Shown in pieces: positions 1,238 to 59,198 of a DNA stretch of 64,000 bases (positions within the stretch are counted from its first letter, which is position 1; every line of letters begins with the position of its first letter). The position numbers were made by a program, and so were the translations under genes. Source of the DNA: a phage. The notes below the pieces were generated by a model, which ran no database searches, was not told the origin of the DNA, and was given only the letters and a program-made list of their open reading frames with translations. Location of the stretch: the sequence record PZ386953.1. One strand, 5' to 3'.

Positions 1238-2284
1238 GTGATGACTAAACCAGTTATCCCTCTTGATATTTGGGCCAATCAGGATGTTGTGCTTGAAAAT
1301 ACGGGAGAATTGAATAAGTCCCAACCAAAAAAAGAAGAGAGACTGAAAGGTTGGGATATGACACAAAGAGTGGCATGTGAAGTTGTTAACTTTGAACTTC
1401 ACATGCTTTCTGCGTGGTTAAAGCATTTAACAGAAGATGTTGTCCCAGGATGGGATAATAGATTCTTAAGGGTCACTAATAATCTGGCAGACGTTCCAGA
1501 CAAAGCTGCTGCACGTCAAGTTCTCAATGTATACTCGCCTGAAGAAATGGATGACCTTTATGTTGACAAGGCTGGAGACACAATGATCCAGACTCAAACT
1601 TTAGGTCTTCAAAGAATCGAGTTTGCATCCGCGTCAACAGACAATGCGGCGATATACACCACCATAACTTCAGACAAGACGATGATGGATTTCTGGATTA
1701 TGGACAACATCGGTGGTGCTGACGGCACAGACCTTGATGATCCCTCTCACCAAATAGACGGTTTCCGTTGGAGATTTCAACCTTCTGGTGGGCAGCCTGT
1801 GTTTTCAGCTATGAAGCTCAATGCTATAACTGCCAACCGTGCAAGACTGGCTATCCAAGGAAATCTTGAATGCAACGACGCAAAAAGTTCCTCTGCAAAT
1901 GCCAATGCAGCTACGATACCAAGAGCCACTGTTAATGGACAACAATCCTGTGGAAGCGCTCAAATAGGTGGAAGAGTTGATTGTAACGATGAAACCGTCA
2001 GGGGCCAATATGCAACAGTTGGTGGAAGAAACGTGGTCCGCAGGGTAAATGGTAACAGCGCAGACGGTAGTGGTAACCTTACTATCCCTATGCCCAGCAG
2101 AGGGGTTGATGATGTGAGGATAGCAAACCGTTTCAAAACCACCTACAGAGAGTCAAGAGTCTACCCTGGACATGTGATGTGCTCGGGTAACTACGCTTAT
2201 AAACACCCTTATCAAGGTGATTACTGGACAGGTGCTATCCAAAAACTTGTAAATGGTCAATGGATCACTATATCTTATGCTTAA
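1238..2284 (+). CDS. tail-fibre-like protein
   Basis: 348 aa; C-terminal tail identical to that of the upstream partial gene (YWTGAIQKLVNGQWITISYA). Confidence 0.5.
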   Translation: MMTKPVIPLDIWANQDVVLENTGELNKSQPKKEERLKGWDMTQRVACEVVNFELHMLSAWLKHLTEDVVPGWDNRFLRVTNNLADVPDKAAARQVLNVYSPEEMDDLYVDKAGDTMIQTQTLGLQRIEFASASTDNAAIYTTITSDKTMMDFWIMDNIGGADGTDLDDPSHQIDGFRWRFQPSGGQPVFSAMKLNAITANRARLAIQGNLECNDAKSSSANANAATIPRATVNGQQSCGSAQIGGRVDCNDETVRGQYATVGGRNVVRRVNGNSADGSGNLTIPMPSRGVDDVRIANRFKTTYRESRVYPGHVMCSGNYAYKHPYQGDYWTGAIQKLVNGQWITISYA

Positions 2285-2295
2285 AAAGAGGGTAA

Positions 2296-2562
2296 ATGAA
2301 ACTAACTCAGTTTTTATGGGGACTGGTTGCGGCATCTGATGACCCTACGAAAGTGTCCCAATCTAAGCTATGGTCAAACATAGGTATGGCGGTGATGACT
2401 GGGGTGTTTATTCATATGGGGTATAATGATACGCTTCCTGAATGGTATGCGTGGATATATGCGCCTTCGGTAGCTTGCCCCCAGCTTATTAGCAAATTCA
2501 TCTCGCTCCGGTGGGGTTGCCAGCACCCTGACCACGTTAAAAACGAAGAGCAAAAAGCTTAA
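2296..2562 (+). CDS. small membrane protein (two predicted TM segments; holin-like)
   Basis: 88 aa, hydrophobic stretches LWGLVAA and NIGMAVMTGVFIHMGY. Confidence 0.35.
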   Translation: MKLTQFLWGLVAASDDPTKVSQSKLWSNIGMAVMTGVFIHMGYNDTLPEWYAWIYAPSVACPQLISKFISLRWGCQHPDHVKNEEQKA

Positions 2563-26349: not shown

Positions 26350-26687
26350 GTTTGTGGAGAAATATAGTTAACTACGTGTGTGGCAATCCAACTCCTGAAG
26401 AGAAGGATGTTGTGATTCACGATTTTACTAAAAGATCTCGTGAAAAAGATCTACTGCTGACAAAGGTGACTGATAAAGATCCTGCAGTAGGGGACTGGGC
26501 AGGTTTTGCGTTTACATCGGACAAATACACCTTTAACAAAGGTGACTATCTTGTTGTGGATTTTAACGAAGACATCGAGGGTGCTGAACCTTACTATCAA
26601 ACCCTTATTGTTGCAGGGTGTGTTAATCTCTCTGCAGGTATGCACAGTTTGATTCTTTTTGAGCTTGACTCTGAAGACCTTGAGTAG
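26346..26687 (+). CDS. hypothetical protein
   Basis: 113-aa ORF. Confidence 0.45.
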   Translation: MSLWRNIVNYVCGNPTPEEKDVVIHDFTKRSREKDLLLTKVTDKDPAVGDWAGFAFTSDKYTFNKGDYLVVDFNEDIEGAEPYYQTLIVAGCVNLSAGMHSLILFELDSEDLE

Positions 26688-52788: not shown

Positions 52789-53096
52789 TCGCTATTACGC
52801 CAACCGTTTTAGATTGGTATCGGCAACGCATAGCTCCTCCGCTGGCTATCTTCAAAGATGCGGAATCAAAACAACGCCGGATCTCAATACATGAGATCAT
52901 CAACCTTAACGCTGGAGGCACACCATACCGCCCAGGGCCTGGCCGTGAGATGGACAATACGTTAGCGATCCTGAAGATACGCCGTAAACGGTCCTCCCTT
53001 ACGCTGGACTCCTTACACACAATGCAGTCTCCGTTCCAGGTGACCGGGAAACGGATCGCCAGGTCCTGGACAAAGGCCAATGATCGGACCGTATAA
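52785..53096 (+). CDS. hypothetical early protein
   Basis: 103 aa, ATGA overlap. Confidence 0.45.
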   Translation: MIAITPTVLDWYRQRIAPPLAIFKDAESKQRRISIHEIINLNAGGTPYRPGPGREMDNTLAILKIRRKRSSLTLDSLHTMQSPFQVTGKRIARSWTKANDRTV

Positions 53097-53184
53097 ATAA
53101 AAAGTGCTTTGGTACTGATTTTGGGGGTTGACTTGTTCGGCCCCTTTTGCTATTCTTATTAAACGGGCGGCACTTGGGAACAGG

Positions 53185-53207
53185 GGGAGACAATCACCGG
53201 GCCTGCC
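53185..53207 (-). repeat. inverted copy of the 43.58-kb structured element core
   Basis: GGGAGACAATCACCGGGCCTGCC is the reverse complement of GGCAGGCCCGGTGATTGTCTCCC at about 43583-43605. Confidence 0.55.
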
Positions 53208-53315
53208 TGTCATATAAGAACTATAAAAACCGTTGACATCTGCCAGGTGGTGGGGTAACATTTATCTTGAAGGGGCAAAAGTGCCCACACAACAACCAGA
53301 AGAGAGGAAAACATT

Positions 53316-53588
53316 ATGTCAAGCTGGATTAATCAAGAAGTCGAATCACGTTTTAATGCTATTTGGGATCTCATCGAAAAAGAGGACGGAACATCAAGCC
53401 CTTATCTCAATAATCTTGAATTCCATTTCGTGGAAGCGATGAACGCAGAACATGATCACGAAGGTGGTGCGGATGAGTTCGCTAAAGGGTATGGCTTCAA
53501 CAATGCCAACGAAATGATCGAGGCGGTTGTACTCCAGGCTGAGGAAGATTATCAATTAAAAACGCTTGAATTCTGCCGCCGTAAGTAA
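53316..53588 (+). CDS. hypothetical early protein
   Basis: 90 aa; promoter TTGACA at about 53233, hairpin GGGCAAAAGTGCCC, SD AGAGAGGAAAA. Confidence 0.5.
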   Translation: MSSWINQEVESRFNAIWDLIEKEDGTSSPYLNNLEFHFVEAMNAEHDHEGGADEFAKGYGFNNANEMIEAVVLQAEEDYQLKTLEFCRRK

Positions 53589-53650
53589 TAAGATAATGAC
53601 ACGGGCCAAAAGGCCCACTAAACAAAAACCACATAAAGAGGAAAAACATC

Positions 53651-53914
53651 ATGAAACGTCTTGACCAGCTCAAACTAGTTCAATATATGGCTTATCGTGT
53701 TCTGGAAGTCCAGAAAGGTAGCAAAAAAGAGGTTTGCGAGAAAGCTTATAAGATCTTTACCCGCAAAAAAGATGACTGGATGCTACGCCAGACCAAAAAG
53801 GCTGACATCTTGGGGTACCTGGAAGAAGAGATCCGACTTGAAGAACAAGAAGAGATCCGCCGTAGTGAGGCAGATTATCAGGCAGCTTGGGAAAACTGGA
53901 TGAGCAACAAATAA
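53651..53914 (+). CDS. hypothetical early protein (charged, coiled-coil-like)
   Basis: 87 aa; hairpin GGGCCAAAAGGCCC then SD AAAGAGGAAAAA. Confidence 0.5.
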   Translation: MKRLDQLKLVQYMAYRVLEVQKGSKKEVCEKAYKIFTRKKDDWMLRQTKKADILGYLEEEIRLEEQEEIRRSEADYQAAWENWMSNK

Positions 53915-53980
53915 TACAACAAGTTACATGGTCAGGGGCAATAAAGCCCCTTGATCACATAAAAATTATGCTATCCTTGG

Positions 53981-54009
53981 TTGACAGGGATCGGCAGTTT
54001 TGCTATATT
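53981..54009 (+). promoter_or_regulatory. sigma70-like promoter
   Basis: TTGACA - 17 bp - TATATT. Confidence 0.55.
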
Positions 54010-54059
54010 CTTTTTTGAAGGGAAGTTGTAAGAAAATTAACTGAGAGGTAAAAAACACC

Positions 54060-54479
54060 ATGAACATTAAATCTGATAATCCGGCATATAGCTTTGATAA
54101 CGCTTTTTGTCACGGTCCGGCGGCGAAAGGATTCGAAATCGATGGTAAACTAATTATTGTCAATGTTGACGGGGAAGAGGTTGCAGTATATCCGGTGGCG
54201 GACGTTAAAAGCCGTCTACAATGCCGCATGGATGTTACCGCCTATCAGCTTGATCCGGTCCGCGTAGTTGCCCTGGTCCTGGAGGAAGAGATCAAAGCCA
54301 TGCATCATAGCAACAAGTTTATCGGTGACGCGCAAGATAATATGAAGGTATGCCGCCATAAAGTTAACGAAGTTCTTAAAGAATACGGCTTCAAAGATCT
54401 GATGATCAAGCGTGATGAAAAATTCCGCTATCGTAATGACCTGGCAAATCGAATCTATCAAATATACGAATCATTATAA
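54060..54479 (+). CDS. hypothetical early protein
   Basis: 139 aa; SD GAGAGG. Confidence 0.5.
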   Translation: MNIKSDNPAYSFDNAFCHGPAAKGFEIDGKLIIVNVDGEEVAVYPVADVKSRLQCRMDVTAYQLDPVRVVALVLEEEIKAMHHSNKFIGDAQDNMKVCRHKVNEVLKEYGFKDLMIKRDEKFRYRNDLANRIYQIYESL

Positions 54480-54497
54480 TTTCTTAACTGAACTATC

Positions 54498-54526
54498 AGG
54501 GGCTTTAAAAGGCCCCTTTCTTTTTG
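54498..54526 (+). terminator. intrinsic terminator closing the + strand early block
   Basis: GGGGCTTT-AAAA-GGCCCC then TTTCTTTTT. Confidence 0.7.
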
Positions 54527-55129
54527 TCTGTATTTCTCCTACCACAAACGGCCCCACCTGGCAAGTGGAATAATTGACTAGCCATCAATCCCACACACTG
54601 TACAAATATACATGTAAAATAGCTATTGCATAATCTTTCATTGTGTGGTAGCAGGGCCATTTTTACACGTTTTTCCTTCCAAAATTGCACGTAATGCCGC
54701 TATTGCACAAAATTTAACCTGATGCATATCTTCAGTGTCTTGTCAACAACTAAAAATCTTTATAAGTCATACACTTACACACTCACAAAAGCGTGTTCTA
54801 CGTGAAAAATCGAGTATAACTATAGCCGCCAGATCTCAGAATTTACGTACGTTCACCATTCTATAGTCTGCTAAGTATTTATTCCAACCATAGAATAATG
54901 GAATAGTCAATACCTGCATAAAATAATTATTCGTGTAAACTGCATAACATAAATCAGCTTAGGTGTCAACATTTTTCGTAAACAGCCTGAAATTATCACG
55001 GTGAGTTATCATAAACAGAGAAATCTTTAGTCGTCTAATGTTTACTGTACATTACTATACTTACTGGAATCATTAGATGACTAAGAGAAAGATAAGAAAT
55101 AATTAACAATACAATTATTTTATCTGTAA

Positions 55130-55570
55130 CAATAAGGCAACTATGCAAACGAATGGCATGGCGCGACGGAGTCGCGACATAATATAAAAGCAGTAACCAT
55201 CACCCCCGTGATAGTTTGTCTGCAAACTATTAATCAGATCATAGTTGCCTTGTATTTAGTTAATCATGACATAACAAGCAAGGCAACTATAGATCTGCTA
55301 ATAGTTGCCCTGCTTTTATATTATGTCATATATTATTAACCTGTTAATTGTCAGCTTATTGGCTGTTAGCTTGTCAATTGTTAACTTGTTAATTGTTATC
55401 ATGCAAACGAATGTCATGGCTTATCATCTTTGTGTAAACAGTCAATCATGTAAATGATAAGTATGTGAACAGTTATCCATGTAAACTATTAGACATGTAA
55501 ACAATCAGGTGTGCAAAAGTGTCATAGTATGTCACTATTGTGTCTAAAGTGTCACCAGTATGTCAGACAA
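55130..55570. repeat. iteron-like repeat array (candidate origin / regulatory hub)
   Basis: GGCAACTAT x4 in both orientations incl. a 29-bp palindrome around AGATCT; 20-mer ATGCAAACGAATG(G/T)CATGGC x2; TTAATTGT x4; ATGTAAAC x4; TGTCA x5 phased at 9-11 bp. Confidence 0.6.
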
Positions 55571-56125
55571 GTTTTTCTCCTCTTTGTCAAGTGCTGCATG
55601 AAAAATTTACAAACTGGTATGGTAGCATTTTTGCGGCCCTGTTTACATTCAGCGATGTATGTATAAACCTTGCTGTGTGGGCGTTTAGACGTCTAGACGG
55701 TTGGAAGTCTGCAGGTCAATATCTAATCTATTGGCTGCTAACCATATCCCACACAAATAGTAATAAATATAATTGTTATATGCGTAAACAGTAACTCATG
55801 TTATCAATCCCTGTATGTATCGCCAGTGGTGCGCATAATGGGTATTATGTTAAATTGCCCGTAATGATAACTATTCTCACAATGATAGGTATTCTCATTC
55901 ACCCCCACAAGATAGGTTGCAAATGTTGTGCCACTGTGTGAACGGCCTAGCCTATTAATTTGCCTCACTGCCTTGATATTTGAGAATTGTTATAAGAATG
56001 AGAAGTATTCCCATTTCGTCCGCTTGGCAGCACTCCAGTCGCTACCGGCTCCTGACAGGGCAGCACTCCTGTCGGTCAGGTCAAAATCGTGGTATAACTG
56101 GACCTGTTCAGATATTTCTGGCTGA

Positions 56126-56664
56126 CTCTTCAGGCCTGTGTGGGAAAAGCCGACCCCTCCGGCGGCGGGGAGGGGGTCAATTAAAAAATTTACGGGGTAT
56201 ATGAAGCGCTCTTCAGGTAAGGCAGGTATTATGGGATGAAACCCTCTTCAGGTAATGATATTTGTGGGTGTGATATTTGCTGGAAAGCCAGATATTACGG
56301 GACTCCCGGCGGGGCAGGGGTGGTACAGACAGGGAAAATATGGGGATGTAGTTGGGTAAATTGATCAGACAGGTAGGGTATAGGATATGTTACAAGTATG
56401 TTAAATATGGAGGTTGAATATCTGTAAGATTTGTGTGTAAAATCAAAGACTTAAGTGGTGTTGTGGTATTTTCTATAAATAATTCAAGTTTAATAGGTGA
56501 TATTTGTCCCTATCTACTTTGTGTGGTAAACAGATTCAGATGAGATTGGTTTACGAGTGTATACATAATATACAAATTAAAGATACAAGAAACCCCCTCC
56601 CCCTTCGGCTACCATTCACCTTTTCCTCTGACTGGTACTTAAACACTTATTCAGACTCTTCAGG
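56126..56664. repeat. CTCTTCAGG motif repeats and GC-rich hairpins in ORF-free region
   Basis: CTCTTCAGG at about 56126, 56209, 56245, 56656; inverted repeat GACCCCTCC-GGCGGC-GGGGAGGGGGTC at about 56152-56178. Confidence 0.5.
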
Positions 56665-57013
56665 TTATCACCCATATATCATATGGCAGTGACTGGTGTC
56701 CTCCGGCCCCTCTTTCGTCACCCGTCCGCTTCGCCATGCTAATGCCATAGCCAAATGTTCGGTTGTTCACCATGTTCACTCAGGTGTATCTCCATACCCC
56801 TTCAAACCGAAGAGAACAGAAAACCCGAATTACTCGGTAAAAGAAAAGAGAAGAACTTAATTTTATCAGGATAGGCAAGAATGTCAAGGCATGACTGCTC
56901 ACTAAACAAGCAAACAGTCATGTGTGGAAGGTAAGTGATTGTGGTGGTGGGAAATTTAGTTGAAAGATGTATTGTAGGTGCTCCAGCACTTTAGCCGGGC
57001 AGCTAATTGTGTG

Positions 57014-57229
57014 TCAGTCCAGCGGTTCATCCTCTACTTCACTGAAATCAATGTTCATGGTCTCTTCCCAACCATCGATCTCAGCACAAGAGTGGAGTTC
57101 TTTAGGGTTTACTCCCAAAGCCTCAGCAACAGAGTCTATATTTAACACCTCTGGCAGGTATGATTCATCGAATTCCAGGTAAATCAGGCCACGAGTGTTG
57201 TCAGCTCCACCAAATATTTCTATCTTCAT
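57014..57229 (-). CDS. small acidic protein
   Basis: 71 aa, Asp/Glu-rich; SD GGAGA. Confidence 0.45.
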   Translation of the reverse strand: MKIEIFGGADNTRGLIYLEFDESYLPEVLNIDSVAEALGVNPKELHSCAEIDGWEETMNIDFSEVEDEPLD

Positions 57230-57349
57230 AAAATCTCCTCTGGAAATGAGAGTGTGAACGGGTTTTATACGTCACAATGCACAGGAATTATGCACGTTTG
57301 CCTCTTCAGGCCATGCTTTAGCATGAGGAACCTGTGTGGGCTCGGTGCT

Positions 57350-57562
57350 TCATAGTCTACCACCTCTGAACTCTTCGTGCTCAGGCATAATAGAGAACCA
57401 GATATCTACGATGTCCTCCCACGTCAGGTCATCAGCCTCAGGATCTGTCTGGGACGAAGATGAAGAGTCCTCAGAATCTAAGTTTTCCTCTTTAACTGGC
57501 TCATCCAAGGGACATATGGTCACTCCTTCGGATGTCTCTTCAGATGCATGTGTGTTGATCAT
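57350..57562 (-). CDS. small acidic Ser-rich protein
   Basis: 70 aa, poly-Ser and acidic stretches. Confidence 0.4.
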   Translation of the reverse strand: MINTHASEETSEGVTICPLDEPVKEENLDSEDSSSSSQTDPEADDLTWEDIVDIWFSIMPEHEEFRGGRL

Positions 57563-57922
57563 GTTCCACCCGTGAGTATTCCGGCAACAGCCGCTATGGA
57601 AGTAATGATCATCAGGATCACCACTAAAACTTCAGACAATGTTCTCATTGTGTATTCCATATTCTCCAAACTGTGTGTGGATACTATCACGGGAGCGGTA
57701 ATGTGTCAACAGCAACGCCGCGAGGGTTTGGTTAAAATCCGAGCGTATGGTGATTTTGGTCAAAACGGACGTGCGTTCTCGCTACGCTCGAAAGAGAGAC
57801 TTGTTTGTAGAAAGCTCTTAAACGCTCTGTAACGAGATTATCTGTCCAAGGTATGCAATCGTGCACCAGATAAAGAAAAGGACGCCACAGAGCGTCCTAG
57901 GTGTCTTAAATTTGATATTTTG

Positions 57923-58234
57923 CTATACCCATGAGGGCTTATCAAGGTTGGAGTAGCTGAAAGGTGTCAAAAGGTGACTGTCAAAATCCCTCAAACTATC
58001 CAAATCTTTTTCCTCGTCCTGACACCATCTGTGCCTACATTTATTGTTGTAGTGCATAGAATGCATAGCGTTCTGCAACTTAACAGGTACAAGTGATTCA
58101 GGAGTAGATAGTATTGTTGGGTATGCCAGAATCACCTCAAACAGTGGAAACACATCGAAACTAAAGTCTACCTCTGCAGAGGTTGATGGCATATAGGAGT
58201 ATTTAGCCGCCTTTGTAGACATAATCCACCTCAC
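57923..58234 (-). CDS. hypothetical protein
   Basis: 103-aa ORF, start overlaps upstream stop. Confidence 0.4.
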   Translation of the reverse strand: MRWIMSTKAAKYSYMPSTSAEVDFSFDVFPLFEVILAYPTILSTPESLVPVKLQNAMHSMHYNNKCRHRWCQDEEKDLDSLRDFDSHLLTPFSYSNLDKPSWV

Positions 58235-58557
58235 ACAGGTTTGATAATACCTTTACCGAATAATTCTTCGTATCTAATCTTATCCGGATCCCACTCTTGG
58301 ATAATTTCGAAGACAATATCCAACCCAGGGATAATCACTTCTCCAGTGTCAAGTTTGGCAAGAACAAAACCAGAAGGCTGAATGGTTTCCCAGTTGCGCC
58401 GATTGGAATAGAAGACCTCGAAAATATCGCCGACCTTTATCTGTTGATCAAGATGTTCAAGATTCTCTTTCATATAGACGCAGCGGATTTTTCGTGCAGG
58501 CCATAGACCACCTGCATCACGTTCATTTAGCTCTTTTACAGTAATCGGTATACCCAT
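58231..58557 (-). CDS. hypothetical protein
   Basis: 108 aa; SD AAGGAG upstream on - strand. Confidence 0.45.
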   Translation of the reverse strand: MGIPITVKELNERDAGGLWPARKIRCVYMKENLEHLDQQIKVGDIFEVFYSNRRNWETIQPSGFVLAKLDTGEVIIPGLDIVFEIIQEWDPDKIRYEELFGKGIIKPV

Positions 58558-58580
58558 CTCAAATCTCCTTCATAGATAGT

Positions 58581-58610
58581 AAAAAGAGGGGCCCAAGCCC
58601 CCCTCTTTGT
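58581..58610 (-). terminator. intrinsic terminator (- strand)
   Basis: Read on - strand: AGAGGGG ... CCCCTCT hairpin followed by TTTTT. Confidence 0.5.
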
Positions 58611-58612
58611 CA

Positions 58613-58918
58613 TTATTCTACAGAGCGTTTGAACAGAATGTCTGCCTCAGACATGTGCTCAACCTCTTCTTCGATTTTAGCGCGACGTTTTTCAGCCTCA
58701 TAGCGAATATCGAACTCGGTAGCCACCAGAGATTTGATGAATTTAGGAGAATACAGGTGATCCTGCTTCTCAACGAGAATGATATCCTTAATGGCATCTT
58801 TCAGATCTTTAATCTGAAGTTGGAGTTCTACCAGTTCTTCGATTGTTTTGCGAAGGCGATCACGCTCTGCAGTGTCAGAAGGAAGAGAGGTGAACAGTTC
58901 AACTTTAGATTTAGCCAT
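58613..58918 (-). CDS. charged coiled-coil protein
   Basis: 101 aa; SD AGGAGA. Confidence 0.5.
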   Translation of the reverse strand: MAKSKVELFTSLPSDTAERDRLRKTIEELVELQLQIKDLKDAIKDIILVEKQDHLYSPKFIKSLVATEFDIRYEAEKRRAKIEEEVEHMSEADILFKRSVE

Positions 58919-58946
58919 AGTGAGAGTCTCCTTATGTTGTTTTAAA

Positions 58947-59198
58947 TTAACGTTCTACAAAAATACCGTTCAGTTCAATAACCAGGAATTTCTGGTCTTC
59001 ACTATCGTCTCGTGCCAGCACCTCACAGACGTATCGGTCATCCACATCATCATCGCAGTCAAATACAAGACTGAGGACTTTATCATGGTAAACCTTCGCC
59101 ACTACCGCCTCGTAAGTATTGCCGATTGTGAATCCAAGATAATCTCCGATGCATTTGACAACAACATGGTCTCCAGCATTTAAGTCAATCTTCGTCAT
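58947..59198 (-). CDS. small acidic protein
   Basis: Start set to internal Met (MTKIDL) preceded by AAGGAG SD; track ORF extends to 59264. Confidence 0.45.
   Translation of the reverse strand: MTKIDLNAGDHVVVKCIGDYLGFTIGNTYEAVVAKVYHDKVLSLVFDCDDDVDDRYVCEVLARDDSEDQKFLVIELNGIFVER

Follow-up and report, generated by a model that had tools for sequence, protein, structure and literature searches.

Oriented motifs in the conserved non-coding flank of an rV5-like phage genome end: possible signals for end formation and packaging

The window analysed here, a stretch of 64,000 nucleotides of phage DNA (record PZ386953.1), belongs to Vequintavirus, the rV5-like E. coli phages, and 122 Vequintavirus records match it at 90-99%. 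Phages of this kind (Vequintavirinae) are widely used in therapy and biocontrol and make up a large part of the BASEL collection. Two gene blocks converge on a hub bounded by a plus-strand gene ending at 54479 and by the last minus-strand gene of the right-hand block (Table 1). The preliminary description was correct in calling this a 2.5-kb non-coding hub: the rV5 genome paper (2013) drew a 'non-coding' box at the locus that has gone unexplained since, and convergent blocks around a non-coding hub are also seen in rV5, KPP-1 and PVP-SE1.

Table 1. Features of the hub and its surroundings, in window coordinates (a slash marks the repeat boundary; DTR, direct terminal repeat).
Feature	Position	Strand	Remarks
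DTR, 459 bp	55566..56024		one copy in window; homologous to relatives' terminal repeat
GATATTTG copy inside DTR	55975..55982	+	43 nt (start to start) before boundary sequence
Right DTR boundary sequence GTCCGCT/TGGCAGC	56017..56030	+	conserved across genera
Hypervariable zone directly outside DTR	56025..56105		33-nt repeat GGCAGCACTCCnGTCG twice, small palindromes
Composite element GATATTTC-N7-CTCTTCAGG-CC-TGTGTGG	56111..56143	+	holds CTCTTCAGG copy 1 (56126-56134)
GC-rich inverted repeat GACCCCTCC-ggcggc-GGGGAGGGGGTC	56152..56178	+	recurs in Seunavirus and sister clade
CTCTTCAGG copy 2, in 35-nt duplicated unit	56209..56217	+	absent in 2/18 genomes
Conserved island A	56236..56334	+	ATGAAnCC-CTCTTCAGG copy 3 (56244-56252)
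Another GATATTTG copy	56499..56506	+	sister clade: promoter at aligned position
AT-rich spacer, 29% GC, variable	56500..56585		between two conserved blocks
Block B, ultra-conserved, non-coding	56586..56860	-	likely body of a minus-strand non-coding transcript
CTCTTCAGG copy 4	56656..56664	+	within block B
Hairpin CCGAG-UAA-UUCGG, then GUUUUCUGUU	56815..56837	-	about 16 nt downstream of predicted start
Sigma-70-type promoter TTGACA-16-(TG)TAAAAT	56860..56887	-	predicted; points leftwards at DTR
Last gene of right-hand block	57014..57229	-	71 aa, PHROG 12108, no assigned function
CTCTTCAGG copy 5	57302..57310	+	gap between last two minus-strand genes

Region 55800-57000 had been described as free of open reading frames, and it does not behave as protein-coding DNA. 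Mechanical frames of up to 74 aa occur, none of them conserved in an uncultured sister clade: every frame is interrupted in that comparison by stops and by indels that are not multiples of three, with breaks in L022, L024 and the window, and the best shared frame gives a peptide identity of roughly 45% (estimated by eye), below the nucleotide identity of about 76%. The motif copies and the inverted repeat reported there were likewise confirmed. Over about 1 kb to the right of the terminal repeat, this non-coding DNA is more conserved than the adjacent gene. A blastn search found no match to the flank outside Vequintavirus, and no counterpart of the sister clade was found among GenBank phages. 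Host origin was rejected after comparison with 5,426 E. coli genomes, none of which showed similarity; the 64-kb window contains no E. coli Chi site, and ARAGORN found no tRNA or tmRNA. The flanking proteins belong to no informative family except for one PHROG 'transcriptional regulator' 1.6 kb away, which was useless for finding the hubs of other genera because synteny is not kept; those hubs were located through the conserved terminal repeat itself. No study of their transcriptome or packaging came up in a literature search on these phages.

The records of phages Gotham and HdK5 begin and end with the same 459 bp, annotated as a repeat_region in Gotham, and these align to the window from 56023/56024 down to 55566. 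Those of ECP2303, Pr121LW and bov11CS3 stop at the same nucleotides, making five records in all, and published repeat sizes in relatives are 458-459 bp. The packaged DNA of close relatives ends at 55565/55566 and 56024/56025. What is new is that alignment places the known repeat of Gotham and HdK5 at 55566-56024 of the window; the first 225 bp of the region originally singled out (55800-56024) are therefore the repeat itself. Both boundary sequences are conserved across genera and align without gaps to KPP-1 (Mydovirus), PVP-SE1, GEC_vB_MG and GAP31, in which the right boundary reads GTCCGTC/TAGCAC. For KPP-1, a 514-bp repeat and T7-type packaging by PhageTerm have been published, and its boundary is borne out by where the records of phages KP12 and DP end.

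A pac/cos-type site had been among the suggestions for the region. The physical ends of the relatives do map here, at its left edge rather than at CTCTTCAGG or the hairpin, and they are direct-terminal-repeat (T7-type) ends, neither cohesive nor headful; the window holds the homologous sequence once. A cos site is ruled out by the 459-bp duplication at both ends in relatives, and a pac site with headful packaging by the identical end points of independent records. The ends of rV5-like genomes have long been described as circularly permuted, by assumption in the rV5 paper and, in one 2026 paper on BpE1AUH, as permuted/headful from PhageTerm inference. These two accounts are the only contradiction to fixed ends, which were mapped in relatives and not in this phage.

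Directly outside the right boundary, 86% of sites in 56025-56105 are variable among 18 genomes, the differences including indels and changes in repeat copy number; at the equivalent place, the sequence of the sister clade is unrelated and differs in length. Inside the repeat, GATATTT lies exactly 43 nt before GTCCG or GCCTG in 7/7 lineage representatives, drawn from Vequintavirus, the uncultured sister clade, Mydovirus and Seunavirus, while the 36 intervening bases differ. Extra copies on the same strand lie just outside the repeat. At the level of sequence, GATATTT has the attributes of a terminase-recognition array, namely a repeated motif and a fixed register with the cut.

Further out, CTCTTCAGG recurs where the preliminary description had placed it, at 56126, 56209, 56244 (given there as 56245) and 56656; copies at 56209 and 56244 extend to CTCTTCAGGTAA, as had also been stated. 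With the fifth copy, at 57302, all are on the plus strand, and the sixth and last of the 64-kb window is at 26394 on the minus strand. Shuffling gave an expectation of 0.59 copies per 64-kb window and reached six copies in 0 of 100 shuffles. A related whole genome of 134,946 bp has seven copies, five of them on the same strand within 1.16 kb at this locus; the other two fit chance, the first-order Markov expectation being 1.3 per genome of that length. The composite element around the first copy (56111-56143) is nearly invariant in 18 genomes, and its extended form GGCTGAC(T/A)CTTCAGG...TGTGTGG is common to the window, KPP-1 and GAP31. Two direct-repeat units of about 40 bp containing the motif had also been reported. 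They are weaker than described: a 20-nt core is duplicated at 56201-56220 and 56236-56255 with 90% identity and 35-nt spacing, and Tandem Repeats Finder did not call the 56201-56255 duplication even at score 30. Island A holds ATGAAnCC and the third copy, followed by GATATTTG at 56257 and 56272, GATATTAC at 56291 and then ACGGGACTCC...GGGG. Island A is nearly invariant in Vequintavirus and is one of only two stretches that can be aligned with the sister clade (74-79%).

In the degenerate form C(T/A)CTTCAGG (CWCTTCAGG), the motif is found outside the same end of the repeat in Vequintavirus, the sister clade, Mydovirus and Seunavirus. Five hubs hold 5, 5, 5, 4 and 4 plus-strand copies against 0.02-0.05 expected, a result matched in 0 of 2000 simulations, and KPP-1 and GAP31 have one plus-strand copy each. 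Altogether 24 of 27 copies are on the plus strand to the right of the repeat; the three inverted copies (in L008, GAP31 and KPP-1) lie to its left or inside it. The motif keeps no fixed distance from the cut and occurs up to 1.3 kb away, including the intergenic copy at 57302, whose position is kept in the sister clade (L008 10224, L052 8827, L024 3275). L024 and L052 lack one copy, and two Vequintavirus genomes lack a different one. A metagenome pattern scan for CTCTTCAGG-N3-6-GATATTTG gave about 120 matches, nearly all of them chance or coding, the relevant ones being only L052, L139 and L160.

It had been suggested that such repeats form a phage-specific promoter set. A phage-specific (middle or late) promoter class with CTCTTCAGG as its core is highly improbable and largely refuted by the genome-wide distribution of the motif, which is confined to this locus: five of the seven whole-genome copies share one gene-free stretch, the other two are at chance level, and no plus-strand genes lie downstream. 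By inspection, most copies also lack a -10-like hexamer at 16-18 nt. In favour of a promoter class, a sister-clade copy overlaps TTGACT-17-TGgTATATT, aligned with 56499-56506, before an HNH endonuclease gene, and TGTGTGG is frequently found 3' of the motif and is enriched in the hub (10 of its 29 window copies). TGTGTGG itself was considered as an extended -10 element and rejected, a plausible -10 being present at only one or two copies by inspection. The position of the motif relative to candidate promoters (upstream, overlapping or downstream) changes with genus, which also fits a transcription-linked role. In KPP-1 and GAP31 it sits in a hairpin with a U-rich tail directly after the last gene. 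A promoter overlapping the motif and common to KPP-1, PVP-SE1 and GAP31 looked conserved; we did not rely on it because GEC_vB_MG has a 44-nt insertion between -35 and -10. On the minus strand the motif reads CUGAAGAG, and a hammerhead ribozyme was considered and rejected, with no Rfam match and no GAAA after stem II at 56126 and 56656.

Between the first and second motif copies lies the inverted repeat GACCCCTCC-GGCGGC-GGGGAGGGGGTC, present at 56152-56178 as described. It is the same element as CCCTCC-GGnCG-GGGGAGGG of Seunavirus and the sister clade, and a CCCTCC...GGGAGGG hairpin recurs across the compared groups except in Mydovirus KPP-1. Within Vequintavirus the 5' arm varies (CCCCTCC, CCTCTCC, CCTTTCC) and the GGGGAGG arm is constant, so G-T/U wobbles arise only on the plus strand. 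The tails read UCAAUUAAAAAA on the plus strand and GGCUUUUCCC on the minus strand. As an intrinsic terminator of the window the repeat was rejected, a terminator scan calling it on neither strand; the homologous hairpin of PVP-SE1 does score as a terminator, on the strand that matches the plus strand of the window.

Such hairpins, together with polar stops, could form an insulation zone that keeps the converging blocks from transcribing across the terminal repeat, which we consider quite improbable. Between genes 163 and 164, where the rV5 authors had anticipated terminators, they detected none. A strong terminator does close the left block (54498-54517), and on the right there are hairpins at 56837-56825 and 56178-56152, the latter with a U4 tract on the minus strand and with its PVP-SE1 counterpart scoring as a terminator on the opposite strand; the motif-containing hairpins of KPP-1 and L008 also score as terminators. 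However, the first hairpin is directly preceded by a strong predicted promoter that faces into the zone, most motif copies in the window have no U tract, and ordinary terminators need neither a conserved 9-nt sequence nor 1 kb of conserved DNA.

Block B is far more conserved than coding DNA: 16 of 275 sites (6%) are variable among 18 genomes versus 51 of 216 (24%) in the adjacent gene. It has no conserved frame, is G-rich on the minus strand and can be partly aligned with the sister clade; no homologue was detected outside Vequintavirus and that clade. The C-rich tracts noted earlier at about 56586-56605 correspond to C5TC5 at 56593-56603, which on the minus strand reads G5AG5 followed by UUUCUU. 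Packaging does not explain the extreme conservation of block B.

At its right edge lies the predicted leftward promoter (56887-56860), which agrees with the consensus at 11 of 12 positions and shares the top score of a 5-kb scan. Its hexamers are invariant among 18 genomes while seven spacer sites are variable, the pattern expected of a sigma-70 promoter whose hexamers are kept as its spacer drifts. The sister clade has TTGCAA-17-(TG)TATAAT, with a different spacer, at the aligned position; a promoter towards the repeat was seen in these two groups only. The hairpin that follows could be a terminator, an attenuator or the 3' end of an RNA of about 40 nt, and at the same place the sister clade has CCAGAA-UACGC-UUCUGG and GUUUCUCUCU, the stem having been replaced in a compensatory way. 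Because a conserved sigma-70 promoter is followed by a conserved minus-strand hairpin, a non-coding transcript is likely. The earlier idea of a structured non-coding RNA held to this extent and not in its structural part: a search of both strands of 53000-59000 with Rfam 15 covariance models gave no match at E<=1, which excludes any Rfam RNA family for the region, and when block B and the hairpin region were folded as single sequences, neither strand did better than shuffles (z from -1.3 to +1.4).

A functional non-coding RNA from this promoter might even be the main product of the locus, although we regard that as unlikely. Such an RNA could be about 40 nt long with a CU-rich 5' end, stopping at 56837-56815, or about 270 nt long and ending in G5AG5-UUUCUU (56603-56586), and CCUGAAGAG would then be an RNA or non-template-strand signal (for pausing, processing or protein binding) on transcripts running towards the repeat. 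Invariant hexamers around a variable spacer, the promoter and compensated hairpin of the sister clade, and a block B far more conserved than coding DNA are in keeping with this, as are 76 pairs found by RNAalifold, 12 of them with double changes. So are the U-tailed hairpins that hold the motif right after the last gene of KPP-1 and GAP31, and two inverted copies left of the repeat, by which converging transcripts would read CCUGAAGAG as they do from the right. Against it stand the Rfam and folding results, a covariation based on two lineages only, and the lack of any block B homologue detected beyond Vequintavirus and the sister clade; the literature search found no transcript data. The motif also lies in different hairpin registers among its copies, so it is primary sequence and not structure that is conserved in it.

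R-loop-primed origins are known from ColE1 RNA II, T4 oriF/oriG and the mitochondrial LSP-CSBII. The flank shares with them, as a resemblance only, the succession of a promoter, a G-rich transcript, a G5AG5-type run with U/T and an AT-rich segment; unlike theirs, its G run is not conserved beyond two lineages. The locus might be read as part of a replication origin, in which the G-rich minus-strand transcript would form a stable RNA-DNA hybrid ending at G5AG5 beside the AT-rich 56500-56585 and prime DNA synthesis there, with initiator proteins binding the iteron-like region left of the repeat. We hold this to be rather improbable. The order of elements suits it (GC skew is -0.35 on the plus strand), and the sister clade retains the G runs in the form G6UAG5 and has three perfect DnaA boxes inside its equivalent of the repeat. 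According to the rV5 paper these phages have a T7-like polymerase and a primase-helicase and no RNA polymerase of their own, which makes a host-promoter-activated origin plausible. The rV5 authors saw a skew change at the locus, but it coincides, as they also noted, with the switch in gene orientation, and genes converge on the hub instead of diverging from it. In addition, few parts are less conserved than the AT-rich spacer, conservation in Mydovirus or Seunavirus could be demonstrated neither for the G run nor for the promoter, and the 44-nt insertion of GEC_vB_MG splits the candidate promoter.

The flank of about 1 kb is built from short oriented motifs: GATATTT(G), C(T/A)CTTCAGG and the CCCTCC...GGGAGGG inverted repeat. 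Their order and orientation and the 43-nt distance of GATATTT are kept across genera despite diverged intervening sequence. We favour, with a probability of roughly 45%, the reading that the gene-free stretch is the right-hand non-coding flank of the rV5-like genome end and comprises cis-acting signals for end formation and packaging together with a non-coding transcription unit. Of the three interpretations first offered, the pac/cos-type site survives in this broad sense, the promoter set does not, and the non-coding RNA does in part. The motifs would be protein-binding signals for making genome ends. A recognition protein (the small terminase or an equivalent) may bind the GATATTT copies on both sides of the boundary and so position the cut at 56024/56025. 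On the outer side, the one-directional CWCTTCAGG array and the GC hairpin would be polar accessory signals, perhaps resembling lambda cosQ/cosB or the repeat arrays and hairpin next to the T7 terminal repeat and at work during concatemer processing and repeat duplication. The host-type promoter (56887-56860, minus strand) would drive non-coding transcription across block B in the direction of the repeat, the transcript either stopping at the 56837-56815 hairpin or continuing, and transcription into the junction may aid end processing, as in T7.

Placing the terminal repeat in the hub supplies concrete, testable cis elements for end recognition, cutting and duplication in a large myovirus with short direct repeats. 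The key point is that no other DNA nearby is as conserved as the kilobase beside the repeat, which is built from oriented motifs kept across genera, one of them in an exact 43-nt register with the cut. In practice this bears on genome annotation (start coordinates), on rebooting or engineering phages from assembled DNA and on the design of packageable vectors; the locus also suggests that a non-coding transcript may arise at the end of a phage genome.

Several known systems offer parallels for the favoured packaging signals. The T7 junction reportedly comprises a 160-bp repeat, SRL/SRR arrays, pac sequences, a hairpin palindrome and the CJ pause site. The present locus is like it in its short, exact direct terminal repeat (KPP-1 being classed as T7-type), in having short-repeat arrays and an inverted repeat just outside that repeat within a non-coding flank, and in transcription, here predicted, that is aimed at the junction. 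Unlike T7, this is a 137-kb myovirus with a flank of about 1 kb and no sequence similarity; its motifs are 7-9 nt long, few and strictly one-directional, and its promoter is of the host sigma-70 type because the phage has no RNA polymerase of its own. In lambda cos (cosQ-cosN-cosB) and in the pac sites of P1 and SPP1, repeated terminase-recognition motifs flank the cleavage site. There, too, motifs stand at a set distance on both sides of the cut (here the putative signal GATATTT 43 nt inside, with more outside) and accessory elements are polar, whereas the rV5-like genome ends in direct repeats of blunt type instead of 12-nt cohesive or headful permuted ends, and the element spans about 1 kb instead of 120-200 bp.

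Phage T5 has an 'injection stop signal' region, long, non-coding and rich in repeats and palindromes, near its genome end. The rV5-like hub likewise is free of genes on a kilobase scale and lies near a direct terminal repeat, with direct and inverted repeats, conservation among relatives and DnaA boxes (here in the sister clade). The T5 repeats, in contrast, are about 10 kb long and contain genes, and there is no sequence similarity; rV5-like phages are not known to transfer their DNA in two steps.

A further possibility, also rather improbable and to much the same degree as an origin, is a coupling of transcription to end formation or replication. The G-rich transcript, sent towards the repeat by the conserved host-type promoter, and the polar CCUGAAGAG, which reads the same way for transcripts arriving from the right and also, in L008 and GAP31, for those coming from the left, would together halt RNA polymerase, the G5AG5-U tract (mitochondrial CSBII-like) and CCUGAAGAG acting as pause or stop signals, and leave an RNA-DNA hybrid that might prime DNA synthesis or mark the concatemer junction for terminase. 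Such a coupling, if true, would amount to the T7 CJ mechanism carried out by host polymerase and using a new polar DNA/RNA signal.

The region at 55800-57000 lies within a 2.5-kb gap without genes on which a plus-strand and a minus-strand gene block converge, in keeping with the preliminary description of a non-coding hub. It is also ORF-free as claimed: of the mechanical ORFs, which reach 74 aa, none holds up when compared with relatives. Spurious small ORFs are annotated across the hub in some records, such as MiataMamis and PMBT16. By megablast, 122 phage records match the region at 90-99% identity, essentially all of them from Vequintavirus, whose members are rV5-like myoviruses of E. coli with genomes of about 137 kb. 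The proteins flanking the gap fall into PHROGs of unknown function. In the rV5 genome paper the gap is drawn as a grey 'non-coding' box, and no bidirectional terminators turned up between genes 163 and 164, where they had been expected (PMC3606486). Reading this convergent gap as a transcription-insulation zone seems to us very unlikely.

Three side observations were made. A 139-aa gene adjoining the hub (54060-54479; PHROG 12277, function unknown) is missing from several Vequintavirus genomes (FV3, PMBT16 and nimi) and, at about 83%, is less conserved than the neighbouring non-coding DNA. About 19 UNVERIFIED GenBank records (MG0656xx; 'Campylobacter phage' C7, C2, A147 and others) are labelled as Campylobacter jejuni phages; because they share 90-97% identity with Vequintavirus of E. 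coli here and are classified in that genus, the host label looks wrong. The E. coli Chi site (GCTGGTGG) is absent from both strands of the 64-kb window, where about 1.9 copies are expected, a deficit that is not significant alone.

The Gotham record has a 459-bp repeat annotated at both ends. The terminal copies are identical within Gotham and within HdK5 and align to 55566-56024, a sequence that is single-copy in the window; the ECP2303, Pr121LW and bov11CS3 records start or stop at the same nucleotides. The region 55800-57000 therefore opens with 225 bp that are the right half of this direct terminal repeat (DTR). A terminal redundancy of 458 bp has been reported for EdH4 and HdK5 (PMC6563267). 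The mapping of termini proposed earlier has thus in effect been done for relatives, and it places a physical end at 56024/56025, toward the region's left edge and not at the motifs. Published end types conflict, the genome being treated as circularly permuted in the rV5 paper (PMC3606486) and headful packaging being inferred for a Vequintavirus in a 2026 paper (PMC13211470), as against fixed 458-459-bp direct terminal repeats in two papers (PMC6563267, PMC7471380) and five database records; many records therefore start at arbitrary positions. Inside the DTR are three AATGATAnnTATTCTCA copies, two of which form an 18-nt tandem (TRF), and the repeat of the Mydovirus KPP-1 carries related AATGAGAAT units; both are probably further protein-binding sites.

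Coordinates of features (window positions unless a sister-clade contig is named)
Feature	Coordinates	Strand	Remark
End of plus-strand gene block	54479	+	left border of gap
Good terminator	54498-54517		after plus-strand block
GTAAACAG/CATGTAAA repeats	54978, 55434, 55478, 55494, 55784		iteron region
Perfect 18-nt inverted repeat	55176-55193 / 55310-55327		iteron region; encloses ATAGTTGCC repeats
15-nt tandem	55364-55398		iteron region
AATGATAnnTATTCTCA copies	55863-55897, 55997-56013		inside DTR
CTCTTCAGG copies	56126, 56209, 56244, 56656, 57302	+	
CTCTTCAGG copy	26394	-	
GC-rich inverted repeat	56152-56178		
C5TC5	56593-56603		C-rich tract
Candidate promoter TTGACA-16-(TG)TAAAAT	56887-56860	-	ties for best match in 5 kb scanned
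Hairpin and U tract	56837-56815	-	about 16 nt past predicted start
Inverted repeat CATGACTG...CAGTCATG	56891-56923		8 bp, 17-nt loop; between stop codon of last minus-strand gene and promoter
Last gene of minus-strand block	57014-57229	-	right border of gap
DnaA box trio	L008 7845-7884; L024 1004-1043; L022 11959-11998	one strand	
HNH-type gene	L008 8776-9486; L024 ~1813-2520		shorter form in L022

The motif observation was confirmed. CTCTTCAGG recurs on the plus strand, four times within the region and a fifth time beyond it, and the whole window holds one further copy, on the opposite strand, where shuffles predict 0.59 per 64 kb. A complete related genome has seven copies (1.3 expected), of which five share a strand and fall within a 1.16-kb stretch of this locus, a concentration that essentially excludes the suggested phage-specific promoter set. 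The GC-rich inverted repeat and the C-rich tract were likewise located. What remains of the '40-bp repeat units' is a 20-nt core, repeated with 90% identity at a spacing of 35 nt, for which TRF makes no call.

Conservation was counted first in 14 distinct genomes and later in 18, and in both sets the gap was more conserved than the adjacent genes: 16 of 275 sites (6%) vary in block B, the conserved non-coding stretch at 56586-56860, compared with 51 of 216 (24%) in the gene bordering the gap on the right. The last 58 bp of the DTR and the zone 56106-56340 are well kept too. Variation is concentrated just outside the DTR, at 56025-56105 (86% variable sites, with changes in copy number of a 33-nt unit), and secondly at 56500-56585, an AT-rich spacer. 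The iteron region (54480-55565), which forms the hub's left half, carries repeats of its own and is highly variable among genomes at 55300-55550, immediately left of the DTR.

The flank has no match in E. coli genomes and no blastn match outside Vequintavirus. An uncultured sister clade of three IMG/VR contigs and one metagenome contig (L008, L022, L024, L052), without counterpart among GenBank phages, aligns with it in two islands only (56236-56334 and 56758-56871; 74-79%) and keeps the whole layout, with 3-6 CTCTTCAGG copies, the sole inverted one in L008. KPP-1 has a 514-bp repeat and T7-type packaging (PMC9862379); this repeat, for whose boundaries the ends of the KP12 and DP phage records provide confirmation, lies in a convergent hub that is likewise free of genes. 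In Seunavirus the terminal repeat itself is detectable by blastn, and the hubs of PVP-SE1, GEC_vB_MG and GAP31 could therefore be fetched.

Both DTR boundary sequences are conserved across these lineages, the right one as GTCCG(C/T)(T/C)|T(G/A)GCA and the left one 18-19 nt before TTGTCAAG. In all seven representatives GATATTT starts exactly 43 nt before the start of the right boundary sequence, although the 36 intervening bases differ completely between Vequintavirus and the other lineages; more copies lie on the same strand just outside the DTR. The motif C(T/A)CTTCAGG occurs 5, 5+1, 5, 1+1, 4, 4 and 1+1 times in the seven hubs (0.01-0.05 expected; observed count reached in 0 of 2000 simulations). 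Its copies are on the plus strand and right of the repeat in 24 of 27 cases, the three inverted ones lying left of the repeat (L008, GAP31) or inside it (KPP-1). They keep no fixed distance to the cut, extend as far as an intergenic gap within the minus-strand block and vary between genera in position relative to candidate promoters. An extended form, GGCTGAC(T/A)CTTCAGG...TGTGTGG, is common to the window (56120-56143), KPP-1 and GAP31, and a k-mer screen for strand-pure, hub-enriched words shared with the sister clade returned CTCTTCAGG and GATATTTG and no others. The GC inverted repeat (CCCTCC-GGnCG-GGGGAGGG) is kept in Seunavirus and the sister clade; in Vequintavirus its 5' arm shows C-to-T changes, wobble-tolerated on the plus strand only, and its 3' arm is constant.

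The candidate promoter has hexamers invariant in 18 genomes and seven variable spacer positions, and the sister clade has TTGCAA-17-(TG)TATAAT with a different spacer at the aligned place. The hairpin behind it shows compensatory stem replacement (CCGAG/UUCGG vs CCAGAA/UUCUGG in the sister clade) and is followed by a second, longer hairpin. The predicted minus-strand transcript is G-rich and would reach G5AG5-UUUCUU at 56603-56586, right before the AT-rich spacer. From these promoter and hairpin signals, a non-coding transcription unit is likely. The structured RNA proposed earlier fares less well: RNAalifold gave 76 pairs, 12 with double changes, from two lineages only, but Rfam returned no match and single-sequence folding was no better than shuffled controls. 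A reading of the locus centred on RNA would fit the motif's appearance as CCUGAAGAG on transcripts that run toward the repeat from its right side and, for two lineages, also from its left side, and its place within terminator-like hairpins in KPP-1, GAP31 and L008; overall we consider it unlikely. An R-loop-primed origin appears more doubtful still.

The flank is non-coding and unusually conserved. The terminal repeat and the non-coding box were already known; the literature searched contains no account of the motif arrays or their polarity, of the 43-nt spacing, of the conserved promoter with its hairpin or of the conservation of block B. We favor, at a probability of roughly 0.45, a region that controls, in cis, the formation of genome ends, so that the locus would read as a genome-end or packaging control region, a known kind of element. 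GATATTT could be a recognition site positioning a nuclease, because its exact register to the boundary is kept while the intervening bases have diverged; the presence of copies to either side of the cut is reminiscent of lambda cosB and of the pac sites in P1 and SPP1. The outer-side C(T/A)CTTCAGG array and GC hairpin may be accessory signals, polar in nature, that serve the machinery for processing the concatemer junction and duplicating the repeat. The T7 terminal repeat has short-repeat arrays, a palindrome and the CJ site beside it, which may be comparable in role. The promoter, aimed at the DTR, may supply transcription into the junction. None of the readings taken alone accounts for the near-invariance of block B, and there is a modest chance of a more unusual process, such as transcription-coupled end processing.

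In the sister clade, three perfect DnaA boxes (TTATCCACA) lie in tandem inside the repeat-equivalent region, with none at the corresponding place in the Vequintavirus window; this arrangement hints that the clade uses host DnaA at the genome end or close to it. Between its equivalents of block B and of island A, the conserved stretch at 56236-56334, the clade has an inserted gene for an HNH-type homing endonuclease, preceded by a strong TTGACT-17-TGgTATATT promoter with which a CTCTTCAGG copy overlaps. At the nucleotide level the gene matches HNH genes from unrelated siphoviruses of Klebsiella and Salmonella. The right-hand gene block may in fact be terminated by the inverted repeat beside the window's minus-strand promoter; in place of this inverted repeat the sister clade has a different, stronger hairpin (L008 9909-9886).
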